Part shown: positions 869 to 51,169 of the stretch, piece after piece
How positions within the stretch are numbered: position 1 is the stretch's first letter
How the letters are laid out: every line of letters begins with the position of its first letter
Source: Candidatus Gottesmanbacteria bacterium
GTDB lineage: Bacteria; Patescibacteriota; Microgenomatia; JACOXO01
Direction: 5' to 3'
NCBI GenBank assembly: GCA_016182365.1
Contig: JACOXO010000014.1
Span: 2,294-66,293 of the forward strand
Length of the DNA: 64,000 nucleotides
Notes under the pieces: model-generated
What the model saw: only the letters and a program-made list of their open reading frames with translations
Told to the model about the DNA's origin: nothing
The model's database searches: none
Translations under genes and position numbers: made by a program

Positions 869-885
869 CCCGACGTAACGTCGGG
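869..885. repeat. 17-bp perfect palindrome CCCGACG-TAA-CGTCGGG in the ftsA-ftsZ spacer; member of the CCCGAC/GTCGGG hairpin family
   Basis: Read directly: 7-bp GC-rich stem, 3-nt loop, in an otherwise AT-rich spacer; the same arms recur at 8131-8197, 8480-8518, 25954-25981 and 42130-42171. Confidence 0.6.
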
Positions 886-7524: not shown

Positions 7525-8094
7525 TTAATTATTAAACTCAATGGGTTTTTGTATTAAACCAAAATGATTCACAGGCCAGTATCTAAAGAATACTCTTCCA
7601 ATAATATCATTCTTAGGAACCATTCCCCATTGTCTTGAATCTGCGCTATGACTTCTATTGTCACCAAGAACGAAGTATTCGTCTTGACCTACAGTAATTT
7701 GTTCACCTTCCTTAATATATTGACCTGGAAGCAATATTGTGTCTGTTTGTATGTATTCATCAGGTAATGGTTGGCCGTTTACCAGAACTTTTCCATCGGA
7801 GATTGTTATTGTATCTCCGGGAAGACCAATTATTCTTTTTATATAATCAAAATCAGGATTCATCGGCGCTTTAAATACCACAACATCACCACGCTTCGGT
7901 GCATTTAATCTATAAGAAATTTTATCTGTTAATATGTATTGTCCGTCATGGAAAGTAGGATCCATAGACGCTCCTTTTATCTCATGAGGTTGTACAAGAA
8001 AGAGATATATAACCACAAAAATTGACAACGCAACCACTACTGATTCAATCAGATCAAAAAATATAGAAATAGCACGACGAAATATGTCTTGCAT
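7525..8094 (-). CDS. lepB: Signal peptidase I
   Basis: S26 family motifs (GASMDPTF with catalytic Ser, GDNRSHSADSRQWG box), N-terminal TM. Start placed at the internal Met (MQDIFRR...) because the longer ORF to 8166 would translate through the intergenic GC palindromes; a TTGACA-N17-TACACT promoter lies immediately upstream of 8094 on the minus strand. Confidence 0.8.
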   Translation of the reverse strand: MQDIFRRAISIFFDLIESVVVALSIFVVIYLFLVQPHEIKGASMDPTFHDGQYILTDKISYRLNAPKRGDVVVFKAPMNPDFDYIKRIIGLPGDTITISDGKVLVNGQPLPDEYIQTDTILLPGQYIKEGEQITVGQDEYFVLGDNRSHSADSRQWGMVPKNDIIGRVFFRYWPVNHFGLIQKPIEFNN

Positions 8095-8130
8095 GGATAA
8101 CAGTGTAGGCAATTTGCTATAATCTGTCAA

Positions 8131-8197
8131 TGCCGACGCCACGACAAAAGCGTCGGGGGTCGGCATCCCGACTTAAGTCTAAGACTTAACGTCGGGA
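8131..8197. repeat. Cluster of nested/tandem GC-rich palindromes (TGCCGAC...GTCGGCA enclosing CCGACGC...GCGTCGG; then TCCCGAC-TTAAGTC-TAA-GACTTAA-C-GTCGGGA)
   Basis: Inverted repeats read directly; CCCGAC/GTCGGG arm family; lies between lepB and the GIY-YIG pseudogene. Confidence 0.6.
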
Positions 8198-8216
8198 TCC
8201 CTATATAATTGGGTAG

Positions 8217-8479
8217 ATGGCTTTTGTTTATATTTTAAAAAGTTTTAAAAAAGAAAAGTATTATATTGGTACTACTGAAAATTATGAAAGACGCGTTAGG
8301 GAACATAATAGTGGTAGAGTGAGATCAACTAAATATATCAGACCTCTTAATTTAGTTCTTGTCAGCATTATAATAGTTTAAGTAAAGCTAGAAAAATAGA
8401 ATATAGATTAAAAGCATTAAAGAGAAGAGATTATTTAGAAAAGATTGTTAGAGACGGTAAAATAAAGATGACCGTTTAG
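8217..8479 (+). pseudogene. GIY-YIG nuclease-domain gene, disrupted by a frameshift/small deletion
   Basis: Frame 1 from 8217 encodes MAFVYILKSFKKEKYYIGTTENYERRVREHNSGRVRSTKYIRPLNLVLV, then stops at 8379-8381. The C-terminal half (KARKIEYRLKALKRRDYLEKIVRDGKI) continues in the +2 frame to TAG at 8477-8479. Compare the intact paralog at 25669-25941. Confidence 0.6.
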
Positions 8480-8518
8480 TCCCGACGCAAGGTCGGGATG
8501 CCAACTATAACGTCGGCA
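8480..8518. repeat. Two adjacent hairpins (TCCCGAC-GCAAG-GTCGGGA; TGCCAAC-TATAAC-GTCGGCA) immediately after the GIY-YIG pseudogene stop
   Basis: Same arm family as 8131-8197; begins at the base after the stop codon. Confidence 0.55.
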
Positions 8519-8560
8519 CTCAACGGCAGAGTGCTTCGTTCACACCTGCCCGCCGCAGAT

Positions 8561-8632
8561 GGATCCGTAGCTCAGCGGTAGAGCGTTCGGTTCACATCCG
8601 AAAGGTCAGAGGTTCGATACCTCTCGGATCCA
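8561..8632 (+). tRNA. tRNA-Val (anticodon CAC), CCA not encoded
   Basis: Manual cloverleaf: acceptor GGATCCG/CGGATCC, D-arm GCTC-AGCGGTA-GAGC, anticodon arm TTCGG-TTCACAT-CCGAA, T-arm AGAGG-TTCGATA-CCTCT, discriminator A. Confidence 0.85.
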
Positions 8633-8696
8633 CAGCTTTGGCAAGCGGGTCGAAGAGGTTGGTGGTTCGACGCTTTAGGTAGGACTCCAATGGTTA

Positions 8697-12734: not shown

Positions 12735-13682
12735 ATGCAAATGGTGTTAAACTGCATCAGTTTTTGTTTATTTTTTTACATGAATAACATATCTGTAGTA
12801 ATCCATACTTATAATTCTGCGAGTACATTAAGAAATTGCTTAAATTCAGTTAAATGGACGAATGAAATTATTATTATTGATATGGGTTCAGTAGATGAGA
12901 CATTAAAAATAGCAAAAAAATATAAATCAAAAATATACTTTTTTAAATATACCGGTTACGTTGAGCCAGCTAGAAATTTTGGGATATCTAAAGTCAAAAA
13001 TAAATGGGTTTTAATATTAGATTCAGATGAAACTATTTCTGTTAAATTAAAGTCCAAATTAATTGAGATTTCTAAACAAGATCGAATTGATTTTGTATTA
13101 ATTCCTAGAAAAAATATTATTTTTAATAAATGGATTAAGTATACAGGATGGTGGCCAGATCATAAAATAAGATTTTTTAAAAAAAGTTCTGTAAGGTGGA
13201 CTAGACAAATTCATGATGTACCATCTACGATTGGTAAGAGTCTTCTCCTTCCACCTCATGAGGCATATTCAATTCATCACGAAAATTATCAATCTATCTC
13301 GCAATTTATTGAAAGGTTAAATCGTTATACAAATATTGAGTCAAGGAAAATACTAAAAAATGGTGAAAATGTAGACACGTATACTCCTTTCAGAAAAGCT
13401 AGTAAAGAATTTATTCAAAGGTTTTATATGAGTGAGGGTTATAAAGATGGCTTTATAGGATTATTATTAAGTGTTTTAATGTCATTTTATCAATTTATAG
13501 CATATGCAAAGGTTCTCGAAAATAAAAAAAGGTTAAATGAACAGTCTAATTCTTTAAATTTAATTATTAATGTAATAATATTAGAAGGGTTAAGAGTTGT
13601 TTCTTGGAATTTTATAAATTTACCTTTATTAAAACTTGCAAGGACATTTAAAAGAAAAATAAAACAGTATGGATATATATAA
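12735..13682 (+). CDS. Glycosyltransferase family 2
   Basis: GT-A N-terminus ISVVIHTYNSASTL...DMGSVDET, DxD-type motif; true start may be the downstream Met near 12780. Confidence 0.8.
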   Translation: MQMVLNCISFCLFFYMNNISVVIHTYNSASTLRNCLNSVKWTNEIIIIDMGSVDETLKIAKKYKSKIYFFKYTGYVEPARNFGISKVKNKWVLILDSDETISVKLKSKLIEISKQDRIDFVLIPRKNIIFNKWIKYTGWWPDHKIRFFKKSSVRWTRQIHDVPSTIGKSLLLPPHEAYSIHHENYQSISQFIERLNRYTNIESRKILKNGENVDTYTPFRKASKEFIQRFYMSEGYKDGFIGLLLSVLMSFYQFIAYAKVLENKKRLNEQSNSLNLIINVIILEGLRVVSWNFINLPLLKLARTFKRKIKQYGYI

Positions 13683-14136
13683 AAATAAGATTAAAGATTT
13701 AATCATAAACCCTCTTACAACTAGAGTAGACGATCGGGGGTATTTGATAGAAATAATTCGGGCGACCGACCCTTTTCTTAAAAAATTTGGTCAGGTTTAT
13801 GTTGTTGGAAGTACTTCAAAAGGTACTATCCGTGCTTTCCATAAACATAAAAAATTATGGGATTATTTTTATATTACTCAAGGCAGCGCAAAATACGCTT
13901 TTTATGATGACAGAAAAAATAGTAAGACTTACAAAAAAATGGAAACTTTTATTTTAACGCAAAGAAACCCGTCTTTAATTATAGTACCACCTGGAGTTTA
14001 TCATGGTTGGATGGCTCTTGAAGACAATACAATATTGATTTCAACTGCTTCAGAAGTATACAACCGAGAAAAACCTGATGAGGTACGCGTACCATATAAT
14101 TCTTTTGGGTACGACTGGAGTATTAAATTCAAATAG
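13669..14136 (+). CDS. Cupin-fold sugar-nucleotide epimerase/isomerase (RmlC / WxcM / FdtA-like)
   Basis: 155 aa; double-stranded beta-helix type motifs (FHKHKK...PPGVYHGW) typical of dTDP-sugar 3,5-epimerase / 3,4-ketoisomerase families; sits in the sugar cluster. Confidence 0.5.
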   Translation: MDIYKNKIKDLIINPLTTRVDDRGYLIEIIRATDPFLKKFGQVYVVGSTSKGTIRAFHKHKKLWDYFYITQGSAKYAFYDDRKNSKTYKKMETFILTQRNPSLIIVPPGVYHGWMALEDNTILISTASEVYNREKPDEVRVPYNSFGYDWSIKFK

Positions 14137-14138
14137 TC

Positions 14139-14188
14139 CACCTCGGAGGAGTCCCCGCCCGAGGCGGGGCCACCGTCCGAGGTGTTTT
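14139..14188 (+). terminator. Long nested GC-rich hairpin followed by TTTTG, between the cupin gene and the SDR epimerase
   Basis: Outer 9-bp stem CACCTCGGA/TCCGAGGTG enclosing inner CCCCGCC-CGA-GGCGGGG; U-run after it; read directly. Confidence 0.5.
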
Positions 14189-24230: not shown

Positions 24231-24327
24231 AATGTTTTTTTATTATATACCTTTGAGCCTAAGGTCCCGCAGTATGCGGGACAACCTACGCTTTACGAAA
24301 GCGCCGCCCCGCCTGCCAAAGCCTTTG

Positions 24328-24399
24328 AGCCAACGGTGAGAGTCGAACTCACGACCTGCTGTTTACGAAACAGCTGCTCTACCACTAAGCTACGTTGGC
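24328..24399 (-). tRNA. tRNA-Thr (anticodon CGT), CCA not encoded
   Basis: Reverse complement folds: acceptor GCCAACG/CGTTGGC, D-arm GCTT-AGTGGTA-GAGC, anticodon arm GCTGT-TTCGTAA-ACAGC, T-arm GTGAG-TTCGACT-CTCAC, discriminator T. Confidence 0.85.
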
Positions 24400-24432
24400 A
24401 AATGGCGGGCAGGTCTACCAACTGAGCTAAGA
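24400..24432 (-). other. tRNA 5'-fragment-like sequence (GCCGTCTTAGCTCAGTTGGTAGA...) abutting tRNA-Thr
   Basis: Reverse complement reads like a canonical tRNA acceptor plus D-arm but then diverges and cannot complete a cloverleaf; possible remnant. Confidence 0.3.
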
Positions 24433-24463
24433 CGGCTTAAATCTAGGGATTTTTTTACCATTT

Positions 24464-24871: not shown

Positions 24872-25656
24872 AATTTCTGTTTCTTAAATATAACTAGATG
24901 CCACAAAGTAACATTTTCCATTTTTTTAAATCTTGGATACTGTTCCATCCACTCTATAGTTGGAATCATAGATTTATTTTCAACCAATTTTAAATCATAT
25001 TTTTCTCCAGCCGTTTGATAAATTGATACTTTTCTAACCAAATCTGCCAGTGTTCCGAAATCCGGCCTTGTTACCATGCAGGCAAATTCTTTTGAAGATA
25101 TTTTTTCAAATTTAATATTGTAACCATGGCGTTTACGATTAAAATAATCATAGTCGGGAATTATTGTTTGAAGTTTTCCGGTATTTTTTAAAAGCGATGA
25201 CAGTTTTTTAAATGCAAAGTCAATATTCAATACATGGTTTAAGGACATTATCGCGGTTATATAATCAAATTTCTTTTTTGAAACAAAGGATTCCAACATC
25301 GTCTTTTCCATTTTGATTTTTGGGAAATATTTTTTTGCTATTTCAATATTTCTTTTTGCCGGCTCTAAACCAATTGCTGATTTTACACCTAATTTATAAG
25401 CTTCATTTAACATCCACCCAGTTCCGGCACCAACATCTAGAAGATCTTTATTTTTCCATTCAGATGTGTATGGCAATAAATATTCCCAAAATACTCTAGT
25501 TAGAGGGGAATCTAATCCTACGCCATGGTAAGGCCAGCCTGTATCCGGTAAATCATACTGGTGAGGATTAATAGCTCTATTTAATACATTGCCCATATAG
25601 TTAGTGAGCGGGCGATGGGAATTGGACCCACTGTCTTCTCCTTGGGAAGGAGACAT
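24868..25656 (-). CDS. Class I SAM-dependent methyltransferase
   Basis: Motif I LLDVGAGTGWM; 262 aa; substrate unknown. Confidence 0.7.
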   Translation of the reverse strand: MSPSQGEDSGSNSHRPLTNYMGNVLNRAINPHQYDLPDTGWPYHGVGLDSPLTRVFWEYLLPYTSEWKNKDLLDVGAGTGWMLNEAYKLGVKSAIGLEPAKRNIEIAKKYFPKIKMEKTMLESFVSKKKFDYITAIMSLNHVLNIDFAFKKLSSLLKNTGKLQTIIPDYDYFNRKRHGYNIKFEKISSKEFACMVTRPDFGTLADLVRKVSIYQTAGEKYDLKLVENKSMIPTIEWMEQYPRFKKMENVTLWHLVIFKKQKL

Positions 25657-25668
25657 TTTACCGGTAAA

Positions 25669-25941
25669 CTACGCCCGCTTAGTTAAATAATTTAATAATC
25701 TTCGTTTAATATAACCTCTTCCAAATCCAGTTTTCAATTGTTTCTCTCTTACCAGTGCGTCCTTTTTATTAAGACAAGCTTCATAATAAACTAGCTTTAT
25801 TTTATCAAAACTTTTTGTAGTTTCGTTACTCTTTGTTAAATGTCCATCAACTCTATTCTTAAGGTTTTCAGATGAACCAATATAAAATTTATTTCTACCT
25901 CGTTTAGTATCAATACATTGAAGTACGTATGTATAAAACAT
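25669..25941 (-). CDS. Stand-alone GIY-YIG nuclease-domain protein (90 aa)
   Basis: YVL...FYIGSSENLKNRVDGH...KLVYYE...REKQLK motifs of the GIY-YIG fold; intact paralog of the pseudogene at 8217-8479. Confidence 0.8.
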   Translation of the reverse strand: MFYTYVLQCIDTKRGRNKFYIGSSENLKNRVDGHLTKSNETTKSFDKIKLVYYEACLNKKDALVREKQLKTGFGRGYIKRRLLNYLTKRA

Positions 25942-25953
25942 ATTTTATCCTTG

Positions 25954-26009
25954 CCCGACCAAAGCTTCGCATTGTGTCGGGTCCGCCAAATTGCGTTGCT
26001 TTTGGCGGA
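25954..26009. repeat. Two GC-rich hairpins (CCCGAC-N16-GTCGGG; TCCGCCAAA-N10-TTTGGCGGA) in the 5' leader of the GIY-YIG gene
   Basis: Inverted repeats read directly; first shares the CCCGAC/GTCGGG arms of the repeat family. Confidence 0.5.
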
Positions 26010-26111
26010 GGAAGGAAGCATTCTACCGTTGAATTACCACCGCTTCTGGGCTAATTTTATCAGAAATACATAAATTTTGTATGTATGTTATGATCAAAAT
26101 ATAATCTAACT

Positions 26112-27058: not shown

Positions 27059-27135
27059 TGGCGGGATCGACGGGATTCGAACCCGCGGCCTTTTCCTTGA
27101 CAGGGAAACGCTCTAACCAGTTGAGCTACGACCCC
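27059..27135 (-). tRNA. tRNA-Asp (anticodon GTC), CCA encoded
   Basis: Reverse complement: acceptor GGGGTCG/CGATCCC, D-arm GCTC-AACTGGTTA-GAGC, anticodon arm TTTCC-CTGTCAA-GGAAA, T-arm GCGGG-TTCGAAT-CCCGT, discriminator G then CCA. Confidence 0.85.
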
Positions 27136-41800: not shown

Positions 41801-42082
41801 CATAAGCTAAAAGATTTAGATACAGCAATTCTAAAACCAGTGATTGTGGGAGGGATTATTACAAGAGTTAAAAAAATAATGACCAAAAAAAGCAATCAGG
41901 AAATGGCATTTGTAAAAATCGAAGACATTTCCGGATCAGCTGAATTGGTTGTATTTCCAAAATTCTTTTCCCGCACAAGGCATATCTGGATAACTGACCA
42001 AGCAGTATTGGTTGCGGGAAAACTTGACTCACGAGGTGATAGGACTAGTCTCATTGTTGAAAAAGCCTCGCTCTTGACGTAA
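38852..42082 (+). CDS. dnaE: DNA polymerase III alpha subunit
   Basis: N-terminal PHP domain [15 protein letters not shown], polymerase core, C-terminal OB fold; 1076 aa. Confidence 0.95.
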
Positions 42083-42102
42083 GTAACGTTAGATCTTACA
42101 AT
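42074..42102 (+). promoter_or_regulatory. Candidate atp operon promoter TTGACG-N17-TACAAT overlapping the dnaE 3' end
   Basis: Hexamers with 17-nt spacer read directly. Confidence 0.4.
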
Positions 42103-42129: not shown

Positions 42130-42171
42130 TCCCGACGTAAAAGTCGGGATCCCGACACAAAGTCGTCGGGA
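42130..42171. repeat. Two tandem hairpins TCCCGAC-N6-GTCGGGA and TCCCGAC-N8-GTCGGGA in the atp operon leader
   Basis: Perfect 7-bp arms, same family as 869-885, 8166-8197 and 8480-8498; followed by an A8 run. Confidence 0.6.
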
Positions 42172-43154: not shown

Positions 43155-43376
<222 letters not shown>

Positions 43377-50249: not shown

Positions 50250-50472
50250 GTATATTCACCTCCTCCTTTTTTAAAACCCACCTGTCTGCTAAGGTGGGTT
50301 CATTACTCAAATATAAAGATATGTTTTCTCCAGTAGGGCATACAACGTAATATAGATCACATATTATACTTTGTCAATAAAATTAATAACCCCCAAATTC
50401 AAACCAGAGGTGCCACCTCAATTCCACCTCTAAGGTGGAATAGATTCGCCACCTTGGGTAAATTTACTTAGC

Positions 50473-51019: not shown

Positions 51020-51169
51020 CCCGAAAGCATAAAGCGATCGGGCTTTTTGTTGCAAGAGTTAACGAGCCGCCAGCCGGCGGAGAGTTTTACTTTTGCAACA
51101 TCCTCCTAAAATCGCACCGTGAGCCGTGTTCGAATGAACTGAAAAGGCGAACGGGAAGATTAGGAGGAT
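51020..51169 (+). promoter_or_regulatory. Structured pyrG leader: 5' hairpin CCCGA-N13-TCGGG+CTTTTT, second hairpin CCGCC-AGCC-GGCGG+T-rich, and a 10-nt anti-SD AUCCUCCUAA exactly complementary to the pyrG RBS UUAGGAGGAU
   Basis: All elements read directly (51020-51048, 51067-51095, 51100-51109 versus 51160-51169). Confidence 0.5.

Follow-up and report, generated by a model that had tools for sequence, protein, structure and literature searches.

The window, a 64-kb stretch of DNA from a Candidatus Gottesmanbacteria genome, contains five hairpin loci (5 per 64 kb) composed of short GC-rich palindromes, three of which adjoin two small GIY-YIG nuclease genes (GIY-YIG#1 and GIY-YIG#2), each located directly 5' of a tRNA gene. 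The features are as follows.

869-885, no strand: orphan single hairpin, CCCGACG-TAA-CGTCGGG, in the ftsA-ftsZ spacer, beginning directly after the ftsA stop codon
8131-8197, no strand: pair A, CCCGAC type, 8131-8165 abutting 8166-8197
~8217-8480, plus strand: GIY-YIG#1, pseudogene of a small stand-alone nuclease, with a frameshift near 8360-8366
8480-8518, no strand: pair B, CCCGAC type, 8480-8498 abutting 8499-8518
8519-8545, plus strand: tRNA-Val pseudogene fragment (approximately positions 11-38), 20 of 27 nt identical to the intact gene when compared by eye
8561-8633, plus strand: intact tRNA-Val(CAC), the tRNA partner of cassette 1
25606-25678, minus strand: intact tRNA-Gly(CCC), the tRNA partner of cassette 2
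25669-25941, minus strand: GIY-YIG#2, intact gene for a 90-aa stand-alone nuclease, UPF0213/Slx1-like
25954-26009, minus strand: CCGCC-type double hairpin, composed of hp1 (26009-25982) and hp2 (25981-25954)
26010-26043, minus strand: diverged second tRNA-Gly, 5' half only (positions 1-35; GCGGTGGTAATTCAACGGTAGAATGCTTCCTTCC), 26 of 34 nt identical to the intact tRNA-Gly
42130-42171, no strand: orphan double hairpin, CCCGAC type, 42130-42149 abutting 42150-42171, in the dnaE-atpI spacer

The hairpins belong to two related types, CCGCC (25954-26009) and CCCGAC (8131-8197, 8480-8518 and 42130-42171), and the single arm-pair at 869-885 is grouped with the CCCGAC type. The pattern CCCGAC-N(3-30)-GTCGGG matched six times in the 64-kb window, against a mean of 0.01 and a maximum of 1 in 100 dinucleotide-preserving shuffles, and of the window's eight CCCGAC hexamers six belong to these hairpins, the others being at 43269 (atpE coding sequence) and 58579. 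All copies listed by a first-pass annotation, which had described a repeat family whose arms are conserved and whose loops vary, are present at the coordinates given, and the family stands with two amendments: 25954-25981 is not single, being paired with 25982-26009 (TCCGCCAAA/TTTGGCGGA), and 51020-51042 (CCCGA...TCGGG, then CTTTTTTG) was dropped from the family and resembles an ordinary intrinsic terminator.

The orphan pair at 42130-42171 (TCCCGAC-GTAAAA-GTCGGGA and TCCCGAC-ACAAAGT-C-GTCGGGA, 42 nt) has the type I form seen in four other loci, lies about 20 nt 3' of a promoter-like site (42074-42102) and stops 9 nt short of the probable atpI ATG. In the longer atpI-like ORF, Pfam similarity begins only at residue 33, placing the true atpI start after the hairpins, in agreement with the earlier view that the longer lepB and atpI ORFs read through the palindromes. 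The orphan at 869-885 is without a nearby GIY-YIG gene or tRNA and is not terminator-like, and its 17-mer recurs identically in another Gottesmanbacteria genome (L014, 706-722) in a different context.

That the palindromes are independent intrinsic terminators, a reading already rejected by the first-pass annotation, or that they arose by chance is here refuted, with practically no probability left to it. The one point in its favor is a weak T-tail when 42149-42130 is read on the minus strand, on which no gene ends there; no family hairpin in the window has a T-tail in gene orientation, the matches far exceed the number expected, and the same sequences occur in unrelated genomes and contexts.

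Two nuclease-tRNA cassettes

In cassette 1, pair A consists of TGCCGAC-G...GTCGGCA (8131-8165) and TCCCGAC-TTAAGTCT-A-AGACTTAA-C-GTCGGGA (8166-8197), the latter with a bulged C on the 3' side, and is located 19 nt 5' of the start codon of GIY-YIG#1, a layout shared with two other loci, L194 and L099, in which a homologous GIY-YIG ORF is closely preceded by a pair. From a promoter-like site (8094-8123), transcription is predicted to start near the first base of pair A, and a second TATAAT (8204-8209) lies between pair A and the GIY-YIG#1 ATG; promoter-like sites put two of the window pairs at or in 5' leaders, as the first-pass annotation had proposed for several copies. The GIY-YIG#1 frameshift yields two tblastn HSPs in different frames, so the window copy is dead, and the repaired protein matches Pfam GIY-YIG (PF01541, E 1.9e-12). 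Its stop codon, TAG (8477-8479), matches positions 8-10 in a degenerate copy of tRNA-Val, and pair B (TCCCGAC-GCAAG-GTCGGGA and the imperfect TGCCAAC-TATAAC-GTCGGCA) is inserted in the D-arm of this copy at TAG^CTCA. The insertion point TAG^CTCAG recurs in eight other loci. The remaining tRNA-Val fragment (8519-8545) is separated by 15 nt from the intact tRNA-Val, and homologues of GIY-YIG#1 (33-66% identity) adjoin CCCGAC pairs in at least about 17 metagenome loci.

In cassette 2, the first 10 nt of tRNA-Gly(CCC) overlap the 3' end of the GIY-YIG#2 ORF, and the double hairpin, hp1 (TCCGCCAAA...TTTGGCGGA) followed by hp2 (CCCGAC-ACAATGCGAAGCTTTG-GTCGGG), is inserted between TTCC and CAAGG in the anticodon loop of a partial tRNA-Gly, 12 nt 5' of the GIY-YIG#2 start codon. 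With covariance model R1 the minus strand of 25954-26009 scores 70.5 bits and the plus strand 67.2. The tRNA-Gly half at 26010-26043 is preceded by a TAAAAT -10-like box and represents the displaced half of the resident gene.

Two other identities were considered for this region. An SRP RNA at 25980-26040, suspected from a GGAAGGAAGCA motif, gave no Rfam match at E<=1 and was rejected because the motif is the complement of the tRNA-Gly 5' half. Group I introns are known in tRNA genes of Patescibacteria (PMC13011429), but one carrying a GIY-YIG ORF does not fit here: the tRNA 5' half is separated from the ORF by just 56 nt of hairpins, leaving no room for a ribozyme core, the GIY-YIG#2 ORF abuts a complete tRNA, and Rfam returned no group I intron match.

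GIY-YIG proteins and cassettes in other genomes

GIY-YIG#2 matches Pfam GIY-YIG (PF01541, E 3.2e-13) and has 1,088 homologues that are 60-77% identical across Patescibacteria. In the family Y5, Y20, G22, R30 and E66 are invariant and H34 is conserved in at least 90%, and the window ORFs carry the superfamily signature (conserved Tyr, Tyr, Arg and Glu). At 87-91 aa these proteins are the catalytic domain alone. The best relative in a profile search of the PDB was UPF0213 (1zg2), and the AF2 model (pLDDT 88.5) gave 1zg2, At-HIGLE, Slx1 and the UvrC N-terminal domain as best folds, so that they resemble the minimal GIY-YIG domain of Slx1, HIGLE and UPF0213 proteins (PMC8287910, PMC4407285, PMC1564403). 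Slx1 is a structure-specific nuclease that cuts branched DNA, flaps and junctions (PMC8287910, PMC4407285). An I-TevI/Seg-type homing endonuclease (NCBIfam 'group I intron endonuclease') was rejected, TIGR01453 scoring 25.9 and 19.3 bits against a 56-bit cut-off. In the literature searched, no bacterial UPF0213 protein was connected with a mobile element or with tRNA genes.

Among 80 Patescibacteria loci with GIY-YIG#2 homologues, 75 are followed within 200 nt by a tRNA on the same strand (65 of the 75 within -6 to +27 nt), and upstream of these genes lies a partial copy of the same tRNA, broken by a double hairpin; partial tRNA and double hairpin occur together in 78 upstream copies in other genomes. 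Model R1 identified about 100 CCGCC-type sites in 1.11 Mb of Patescibacteria loci and its sites were used, as a regex, which found 62, was less sensitive. Of these sites, 78 precede the ORF by less than 200 nt, 14 closely follow the tRNA, 4 fall in the ORF-tRNA gap and 4 elsewhere, with tRNA positions 1-34 in the left flank and 35-73 in the right. Because the 80 genome loci were picked via the GIY-YIG gene and the metagenome loci via the hairpin arms, both hairpin-nuclease associations were measured on biased samples.

The same architecture is found with the CCCGAC type in L099 and L194 and with other GIY-YIG subfamilies. In its fullest form the order is resident tRNA 5' part, pair, GIY-YIG ORF, intact tRNA, pair, and resident tRNA 3' part, although the downstream pair is missing from most cassettes, and in L014 the inner tRNA-Gly is a different allele from the outer one. 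The fullest cassette thus reads, from its layout, as a hairpin-bounded unit with its own tRNA copy inside a split resident tRNA gene. The hairpins are tightly linked to these cassettes, in which a minimal stand-alone GIY-YIG gene is fused to the 5' end of a tRNA gene, and the first-pass statement that the window has no RAYT or other cognate transposase is not supported, given the two GIY-YIG nuclease genes.

Insertion sites and hairpin structure

The doublet TCCCGAC...GTCGGGA/TCCCGAC...GTCGGGA was found in more than 70 AT-rich metagenome contigs, at least, and the 25954-26009 type is conserved across Patescibacteria, so the family is not specific to one genome as had been supposed. No CCCGAC pair occurs in 1.11 Mb of other Patescibacteria loci; the CCCGAC family is lineage-enriched. 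Its pairs adjoin GIY-YIG/tRNA cassettes, interrupt tRNA D-arms, occupy spacers, and lie in-frame within gatB, uvrA and other genes. The description of the copies as always intergenic is true of the window, where all lie outside genes, but elsewhere about a quarter, among the matches listed, are in-frame in long ORFs. The lengths of 20 of 23 in-gene insertions, a kind absent from the window, are divisible by 3.

The double-hairpin elements are insertions. The in-frame inserts are missing from homologous UvrA and GatB proteins, the GatB insert is patchy among 120 GatB homologues, and gatB alleles with and without the element, when aligned, differ by an insertion of exactly 36 bp that leaves the target unduplicated, insertion polymorphism being seen for solo hairpins only. 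Neither direct repeats nor a target-site duplication was found in 72 flanks or in the gatB alleles. The flank consensus of the 72 pairs is W-G-T/CCCGAC..GTCGGG/A-C-W, with no extended conserved target beyond a weak WG^CW preference. Searches of viral contigs with both junction patterns gave chance matches only, all of GC 0.53-0.70 and without a nearby tRNA or GIY-YIG gene. The hairpins are small mobile palindromic elements of about 36-70 bp, two-fold-symmetric and widespread in ultra-small Patescibacteria.

The CCGCC-type structure was examined in 41 homologous modules, in which 97.4% of cells are paired. Changes on both sides occur in 18 of 22 pairs, one-sided change in only 3 of 899 cells and G-U pairs in 4 of 899 cells; none of 500 shuffles attained the observed covariation, and slid registers collapse. 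Watson-Crick compensatory change, scarce G-U and the like scores that model R1 gives to both strands point to DNA rather than RNA structure. It is accordingly improbable that the hairpins act as RNA in 5' leaders or pre-tRNAs, as 5'-end stabilizers, RNase III or processing sites, or insulators against partial-tRNA mispairing, and were retained for such a function rather than as mobile DNA. Promoter-like sites that put pairs at or near the 5' ends of transcripts, the -10 box ahead of the partial tRNA in most loci, and inner loops that are often of stable tri- or tetraloop types (e.g. GCGAAGC, CTTCGG) would suit an RNA role, but the changes are nearly always double, Rfam 15 returned no relevant match at the gathering threshold or at E<=10, and in-gene copies are kept in-frame and translated, and hence are not removed from RNA.

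The first-pass annotation called the hairpins REP-like or MITE-like, of which the small mobile element part is upheld by the 36-bp insertion that separates the gatB alleles. A MITE of a DDE transposon was rejected, there being no target-site duplication in those alleles or in the 72 flanks. Rickettsia palindromic elements (RPE; mentioned in PMC1779305) are about 100-150 bp long and we know of no nuclease gene associated with them, whereas the elements here are 36-70-bp double hairpins linked to a GIY-YIG/tRNA cassette. In-frame insertion in ORFs, length in multiples of 3 and absence from orthologues are traits of RPEs that the present elements display in other genomes.

REP/REPIN-RAYT systems also consist of short GC-rich palindromes with conserved stems, variable loops and doublets, dispersed, occasionally intragenic and without target duplication (PMC3733652), and in both systems a single-copy nuclease-type gene is flanked by repeats. 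Movement of the hairpins as classical REPs or REPINs by a RAYT (an IS200/IS605-like tyrosine transposase) encoded elsewhere in the genome would account for these likenesses, including copies within genes (PMC3733652), but is highly improbable. The hairpins have no unpaired GTAG/CGTC end tag, the CGTC of some copies being a bulged C plus paired stem bases, while the stems of CGTC-REPs start with A-T pairs (PMC3733652). The doublets abut directly without a spacer, with dyad symmetry and conserved bulges; they insert into tRNA fragments and are strongly linked to tRNA genes; and the flanking gene in the window, L099 and L194 encodes a GIY-YIG nuclease (90 aa in GIY-YIG#2) rather than an HUH/Y1 RAYT.

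Movement of the hairpins and related systems

The most probable reading, in our judgment, is that these are DNA-level mobile double hairpins linked to Slx1/UPF0213-like GIY-YIG nucleases, the link being one of adjacency and the role of the nuclease one that we infer. The nuclease would recognize or cut extruded hairpins (cruciforms) or their insertion sites, and its action would drive spread of the cassette through break repair. Solo pairs, such as those in the atp leader and the ftsA/ftsZ spacer, may be non-autonomous derivatives or landing pads. Window pairs at or near transcript starts may secondarily stabilize or modulate mRNAs, host function not being required. Simple sequence-specific homing fails to explain immunity, because the intact tRNA of the cassette carries the D-arm or anticodon-loop sequence of the presumed target. 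Strict pairing of hairpin type with nuclease subfamily was also rejected: L097 and L137 have a GIY-YIG#2-like ORF together with a CCCGAC pair in a pseudo-tRNA, an observation at odds with the nuclease model, against which the frameshift of GIY-YIG#1, the missing downstream pair of most cassettes and the immunity problem also count.

A rather unlikely alternative is that the hairpins are selfish palindromes moved by a host or unknown function (replication, repair), with the GIY-YIG/tRNA co-occurrence secondary; GIY-YIG homing would leave dead tRNA fragments, and the hairpins would prefer tRNA-like targets (TAG^CTCAG, anticodon loop) and survive only in dead copies. The loose tie between hairpin type and nuclease subfamily speaks for this, as do the many solo pairs far from GIY-YIG genes and inside ordinary genes, the varying position of the pair within the partial tRNA (with two pairs per fragment in two loci) and examples lacking an ORF, namely two other loci and the tRNA-Thr locus of the window. 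Against it, the CCGCC type is nearly confined to cassettes (96 of about 100 sites), pairs lie on both sides of the ORF and tRNA unit in L014, L099 and others, the distance from pair to ORF start is short and near-constant in most loci, and the TAG behind which CCCGAC pairs insert also serves as the stop codon of giy1-type ORFs.

Linkage to the nuclease, the preferred reading, can tentatively be extended to an undescribed class of mobile element, which we regard as a real possibility, though short of even. It would combine a minimal Slx1/UPF0213-like GIY-YIG nuclease with dyad-symmetric double-hairpin DNA ends or targets defined by their structure, in autonomous and non-autonomous forms. In its autonomous form the element would interrupt a resident tRNA gene, supply a replacement tRNA and borrow the tRNA promoter, and the 36-70-bp doublets would spread non-autonomously into spacers, tRNA debris and, in-frame, essential proteins across Patescibacteria. 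The literature searched, the coverage of which was incomplete so that an earlier description is possible, contained no GIY-YIG/tRNA/hairpin cassettes or palindromic insertions in Patescibacteria.

Three further systems offer partial parallels. SegB-type enzymes of phage T4, free-standing GIY-YIG homing endonucleases, have a DNA-binding domain, whereas the proteins here are bare UPF0213/Slx1-type catalytic domains, and neither hairpin elements nor half-tRNA duplications have been described for SegB. The T4 genes are likewise GIY-YIG genes embedded among tRNA genes, SegB cleavage in the tRNA-gene region drives co-inheritance of the nuclease gene and flanking tRNA DNA, and SegB can produce segmental amplification of tRNA loci (PMC2330249, PMC13096335). 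The GC clusters, double-hairpin elements and repetitive hairpin elements of mitochondria (yeast, Allomyces, sponges, Neurospora) are also GC-rich palindromes of small AT-rich genomes, occur as mobile single or double hairpins, and include gene insertions retained in transcripts; those of Allomyces are without flanking duplications (PMC4478555, PMC2800124). In Neurospora mitochondria such palindromes flank tRNA genes, according to the citation of Yin et al. 1981 in PMC2800124. Unlike the present elements they are organellar and without sequence relationship, and descriptions of them include neither a GIY-YIG-tRNA fusion cassette nor a split tRNA gene. Finally, integron attC sites and IS200/IS605 ends are recombination sites set by a folded hairpin and extrahelical bases rather than by sequence, and IS200/IS605 makes no target duplication. 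Hairpin-structure-defined sites with conserved extrahelical bases are common to both, but in those systems tyrosine recombinases or HUH transposases act on single strands of defined polarity, whereas the elements here are strand-symmetric and adjoin a GIY-YIG gene.

The double hairpins represent a selfish-DNA system that colonizes tRNA genes, leaders and conserved proteins (GatB, UvrA) of the tiny, streamlined genomes of Patescibacteria. They produce false long ORFs, split or duplicate tRNA genes and add inserts of 12-18 residues, which can confuse annotation and protein-family alignments in metagenome-assembled genomes. If the link to the GIY-YIG nucleases is true, it would give a concrete role to a large family of bacterial stand-alone UPF0213/Slx1-like nucleases of unknown function, would place a nuclease-plus-hairpin mobility mechanism beside RAYT/REP and IS200/IS605, and would provide, in bacteria, an equivalent of the mitochondrial GC clusters and double-hairpin elements, which have long gone unexplained.

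Palindromes of the window and their neighbours

At every position listed by the first-pass annotation for its CCCGAC palindromes, the sequence matches the description, and a perfect-stem scan of the window finds the same hairpins again. The pattern CCCGAC-N(3-30)-GTCGGG has 6 matches in the window versus a mean of 0.01 in 100 dinucleotide-preserving shuffles, and in this 35% GC sequence 6 of the 8 CCCGAC hexamers lie inside these hairpins, the other two being at 43269 (within atpE) and 58579. The scan also showed that the hairpin listed at 25954-25981 is present but not alone, a second one abutting it at 25982-26009. The supposed weak copy at 51020 (CCCGA...TCGGG, then a T-run) looks like an ordinary terminator. 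For the hairpins of the family a terminator reading is excluded, as the annotation had held. Pfam places two small stand-alone GIY-YIG nuclease genes in the window (here GIY-YIG#1 and GIY-YIG#2), and a nuclease gene and a tRNA adjoin three of the five hairpin loci.

Hairpin loci, nuclease genes and tRNA genes of the window
869-885, orphan CCCGAC copy, ftsA/ftsZ spacer, no adjoining nuclease gene or tRNA
8131-8197 and 8480-8518, CCCGAC double hairpins (two abutting hairpins each) bracketing GIY-YIG#1
8217-8479, plus strand, GIY-YIG#1 (Pfam), frameshift near 8363
From 8561, intact tRNA-Val, downstream of a degenerate tRNA-Val
24327-24399, minus strand, tRNA-Thr(CGT), within tRNA debris (24260-24440)
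25669-25941, minus strand, GIY-YIG#2 (Pfam), intact
26009-25954, CCGCC-type double hairpin, 12 nt upstream of the GIY-YIG#2 ATG
42130-42171, orphan CCCGAC pair, dnaE/atpI spacer, no adjoining nuclease gene or tRNA

The degenerate tRNA-Val consists of the GIY-YIG#1 stop codon TAG and the sequence beyond the second pair, which interrupts it at TAG^CTCA. The final codons of GIY-YIG#2 overlap an intact tRNA-Gly(CCC), and directly upstream of its hairpins a different tRNA-Gly is represented by its 5' half (positions 1-35), with a -10-like box in front. Three of the four window tRNA genes adjoin tRNA fragments with GC hairpins, and the flanks of the fourth, tRNA-Asp (27059-27135), are clean. The tRNA-Thr(CGT) has a 5' fragment (GCCGTCTTAGCTCAGTTGGTAGA) plus CCTGCCCGCC upstream; on its downstream side come GGCAGGCGGGGC, a second Thr-CGT anticodon arm, and, at 24264-24282, the hairpin GTCCCGCA-GTA-TGCGGGAC. 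This locus (24260-24440) is without a GIY-YIG ORF.

A TATAAT box (8204-8209) lies between pair and start codon, 7 nt ahead of the GIY-YIG#1 pseudogene ATG, which suggests a leaderless or near-leaderless mRNA; the metagenome locus L194 shares this placement. Directly after ORF 13669-14136, a nested GC-rich hairpin at 14139-14184 (CACCTCGGA...TCCGAGGTG around CCCCGCC-CGA-GGCGGGG, then TTTTG) is terminator-like and matches the double-hairpin model weakly (11 bits). A cluster with a different repeat motif, CCACCT/AGGTGG, occupies the divergent spacer upstream of a CBS-domain gene (50275-50455), with hairpins at 50275-50300, 50406-50431, 50421-50441 and 50432-50455.

The nuclease-tRNA cassette in Patescibacteria

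GIY-YIG#2 places the window in Candidatus Gottesmanbacteria. More than 1000 homologues of it (about 91 aa, 60-77% identity) occur throughout Patescibacteria, and 80 of their genomic loci, totalling 1.11 Mb, were fetched. A same-strand tRNA lies within 200 nt downstream in 75 of the 80, at -6 to +27 nt in 65 of these; it is mostly Gly(CCC), and beside more distant homologues Ile, Asn, Val, Asp, His, Arg, Glu or Ala. Nearly every ORF has upstream a partial copy of its own tRNA, broken by two abutting hairpins; this CCGCC-type double hairpin is a conserved component of the cassette. A covariance model of it finds about 100 sites in the 1.11 Mb: 78 just upstream of an ORF, 14 just downstream of a tRNA, 4 between ORF and tRNA and 4 elsewhere. 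Upstream copies have tRNA positions 1-34 or 1-12 as left flank, and in at least 11 loci the 1-34 flank matches the intact tRNA with 100% identity. Downstream copies have positions 35-73 as right flank. Locus L014 retains the order 5' half, pair, ORF, intact tRNA, pair, 3' half, its outer halves making up one tRNA-Gly allele and its inner gene being another. A hairpin-bounded unit with its own tRNA, once inserted into the anticodon loop of a resident tRNA gene, would leave such an arrangement; recombination between the two 3' halves would later have removed the downstream repeat from most loci.

A similar layout, built with different GC hairpins, is seen for other GIY-YIG subfamilies of the same loci, at tRNA-Glu, Leu, Gln, Ser and Thr. 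A further widespread hairpin type, CCCGCCTGCAACGC..GCGTAGCATTGCGGGCAGG, breaks partial tRNA-Leu, His and Thr beside such subfamilies, and suggests that several hairpin families share one lifestyle.

Sites of the CCCGCCTGCAACGC..GCGTAGCATTGCGGGCAGG hairpin in the fetched loci
L020, 3600-3760
L040, 5150-5260
L041, 16505-16579 and 19723-19790
L081, 9900-9990

At L049 (6330-6560, tRNA-Lys) and L047 (7060-7180, another tRNA), the tRNA is flanked by its own partial copies with a minimal hairpin TCCGCC-AACT-GGCGGA or a CCCGAC pair, and no nuclease gene lies between. Such ORF-less examples, the window's tRNA-Thr locus among them, and the imperfect match between hairpin type and nuclease subfamily would fit hairpins that move by other means and merely gather in tRNA debris left by GIY-YIG cassettes, a serious rival, though the less probable reading, to movement linked to the nuclease.

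The GIY-YIG ORFs (window 25669-25678; the fetched loci L003-L082 generally) terminate inside the tRNA gene, the stop codon (TAG or TAA) often being tRNA positions 8-10. RNase P processing would therefore cut the stop codon off the mRNA, with the consequence that a single transcript may serve either tRNA maturation or nuclease translation, not both.

CCCGAC pairs and insertion into genes

A metagenome scan for the tandem junction returned at least 120 loci. Among the matches listed, the full TCCCGAC..GTCGGGA/TCCCGAC..GTCGGGA occurs at about 74 loci on contigs of at most 52% GC; GC-rich matches and all viral matches look like chance. In Type I, to which all three window pairs belong, a G bulges out behind the first 5' arm and a C ahead of the last 3' arm. 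Type II measures 36 nt and has two 4-nt loops. Dyad symmetry is common to the two types. About 17 of the pairs listed adjoin GIY-YIG#1-type genes of 33-66% identity and usually precede the ORF by 9-120 nt; these ORFs abut tRNA-Val, Met, Gly, Thr, Ala, His, Glu, Phe or Trp. The complete cassette architecture recurs at a tRNA-Val in L099, and L194 has the pair-ORF-tRNA-Val order of the window, with the ORF ending on tRNA T8-A9-G10. The tRNA-fragment sequence TAG^CTCAG is the exact site of many CCCGAC pairs. As 1.11 Mb of other Patescibacteria loci contain no CCCGAC pair, versus three pairs and a single copy in the window, the type is lineage-enriched; the 17-mer at 869-885 has an identical copy in another Gottesmanbacteria genome.

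The CCCGAC type is a dispersed mobile element. Among the matches listed, half of the pairs lie in open frames, and in frames of at least 250 codons the length is divisible by 3 in 20 of 23 pairs (P = 1.6e-7 versus one third; P roughly 0.003, by hand calculation, versus 58% divisible in the rest). A CCGCC-type pair was also found in-frame, within a 699-codon frame (one case). Homologous UvrA and GatB, including the window's own gatB product, are without the 12-18 residues; the insert is present in about 10 of 120 close GatB homologues (named Portnoybacteria or Patescibacteria) and absent from the closest relative (83% identity). The filled gatB allele differs at the DNA level from the empty one by exactly 36 extra bp and lacks a target duplication; the insertion flanks show a WG^CW preference alone, and a weak one.

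The 12-residue GatB insert, VPTxVGIPTEVG, occupies the loop between the two Cys pairs (residues ~30-45; homologues P0121-P0240). Close relatives vary in having it, lacking it or keeping it in decayed form (VPTAIGIP, VPTAVPIKIGTEVG). At metagenome locus L193 the insert is offset by a few nucleotides from the L146 site and neighbouring bases are gone, a sign that the site may have taken more than one hit.

Structure, nuclease and relation to known elements

An alignment of 41 CCGCC-type modules was scored against the structure derived here: pairing holds in 97.4% of cells, compensatory changes occur at 18 of 22 pairs, none of 500 shuffles reaches the observed value and slid registers collapse. 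Hairpin 1 comprises 6 bp, a 3' bulge, 3 bp, an A·A mismatch and an inner helix, and hairpin 2 mirrors it with a 5' bulge and a T·T mismatch. The module therefore looks alike on both strands, as confirmed by covariance model scores of 70.5 and 67.2 bits for the window copy on its two strands. Because G-U pairs are nearly absent and one-sided changes rare (3 of 899 cells), we read selection as probably acting on a structure in DNA, or on the two strands alike, and not on RNA. Promoter-like sites put pairs at transcript starts, and an RNA role is possible as a side-effect; strand symmetry, the near absence of G-U pairs and in-frame retention point to DNA as the primary level. Rfam contains nothing resembling the double hairpin.

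The only match to the nuclease family profile is PDB 1zg2 (UPF0213 protein). Nearest to the confident AF2 model (pLDDT 88.5) are 1zg2, HIGLE (a plant junction resolvase), Slx1 and the N-terminal domain of UvrC; the protein is a bare catalytic domain and scores below the NCBIfam intron-endonuclease cut-off. Slx1-type enzymes recognise DNA structure (PMC8287910, PMC4407285), and members that stand alone in bacteria are taken to be the minimal form (PMC1564403). A nuclease of this kind may act on extruded hairpins.

The first-pass annotation had taken the palindromes for REP-like or MITE-like elements. The lack of an unpaired GTAG or CGTC tag and the partner gene beside the hairpins, GIY-YIG instead of RAYT, speak against REP/RAYT. 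Neither the cassettes nor palindromic insertions in Patescibacteria are described in the literature searched, nor does a recent survey of tRNA introns in Patescibacteria mention them. The nearest analogues are REP/RAYT, Rickettsia RPEs, mitochondrial GC clusters and double-hairpin elements, and T4 SegB. We count the hairpins among small palindromic mobile elements, a known kind, and the nuclease-hairpin-tRNA cassette stands a fair chance of being a new class.
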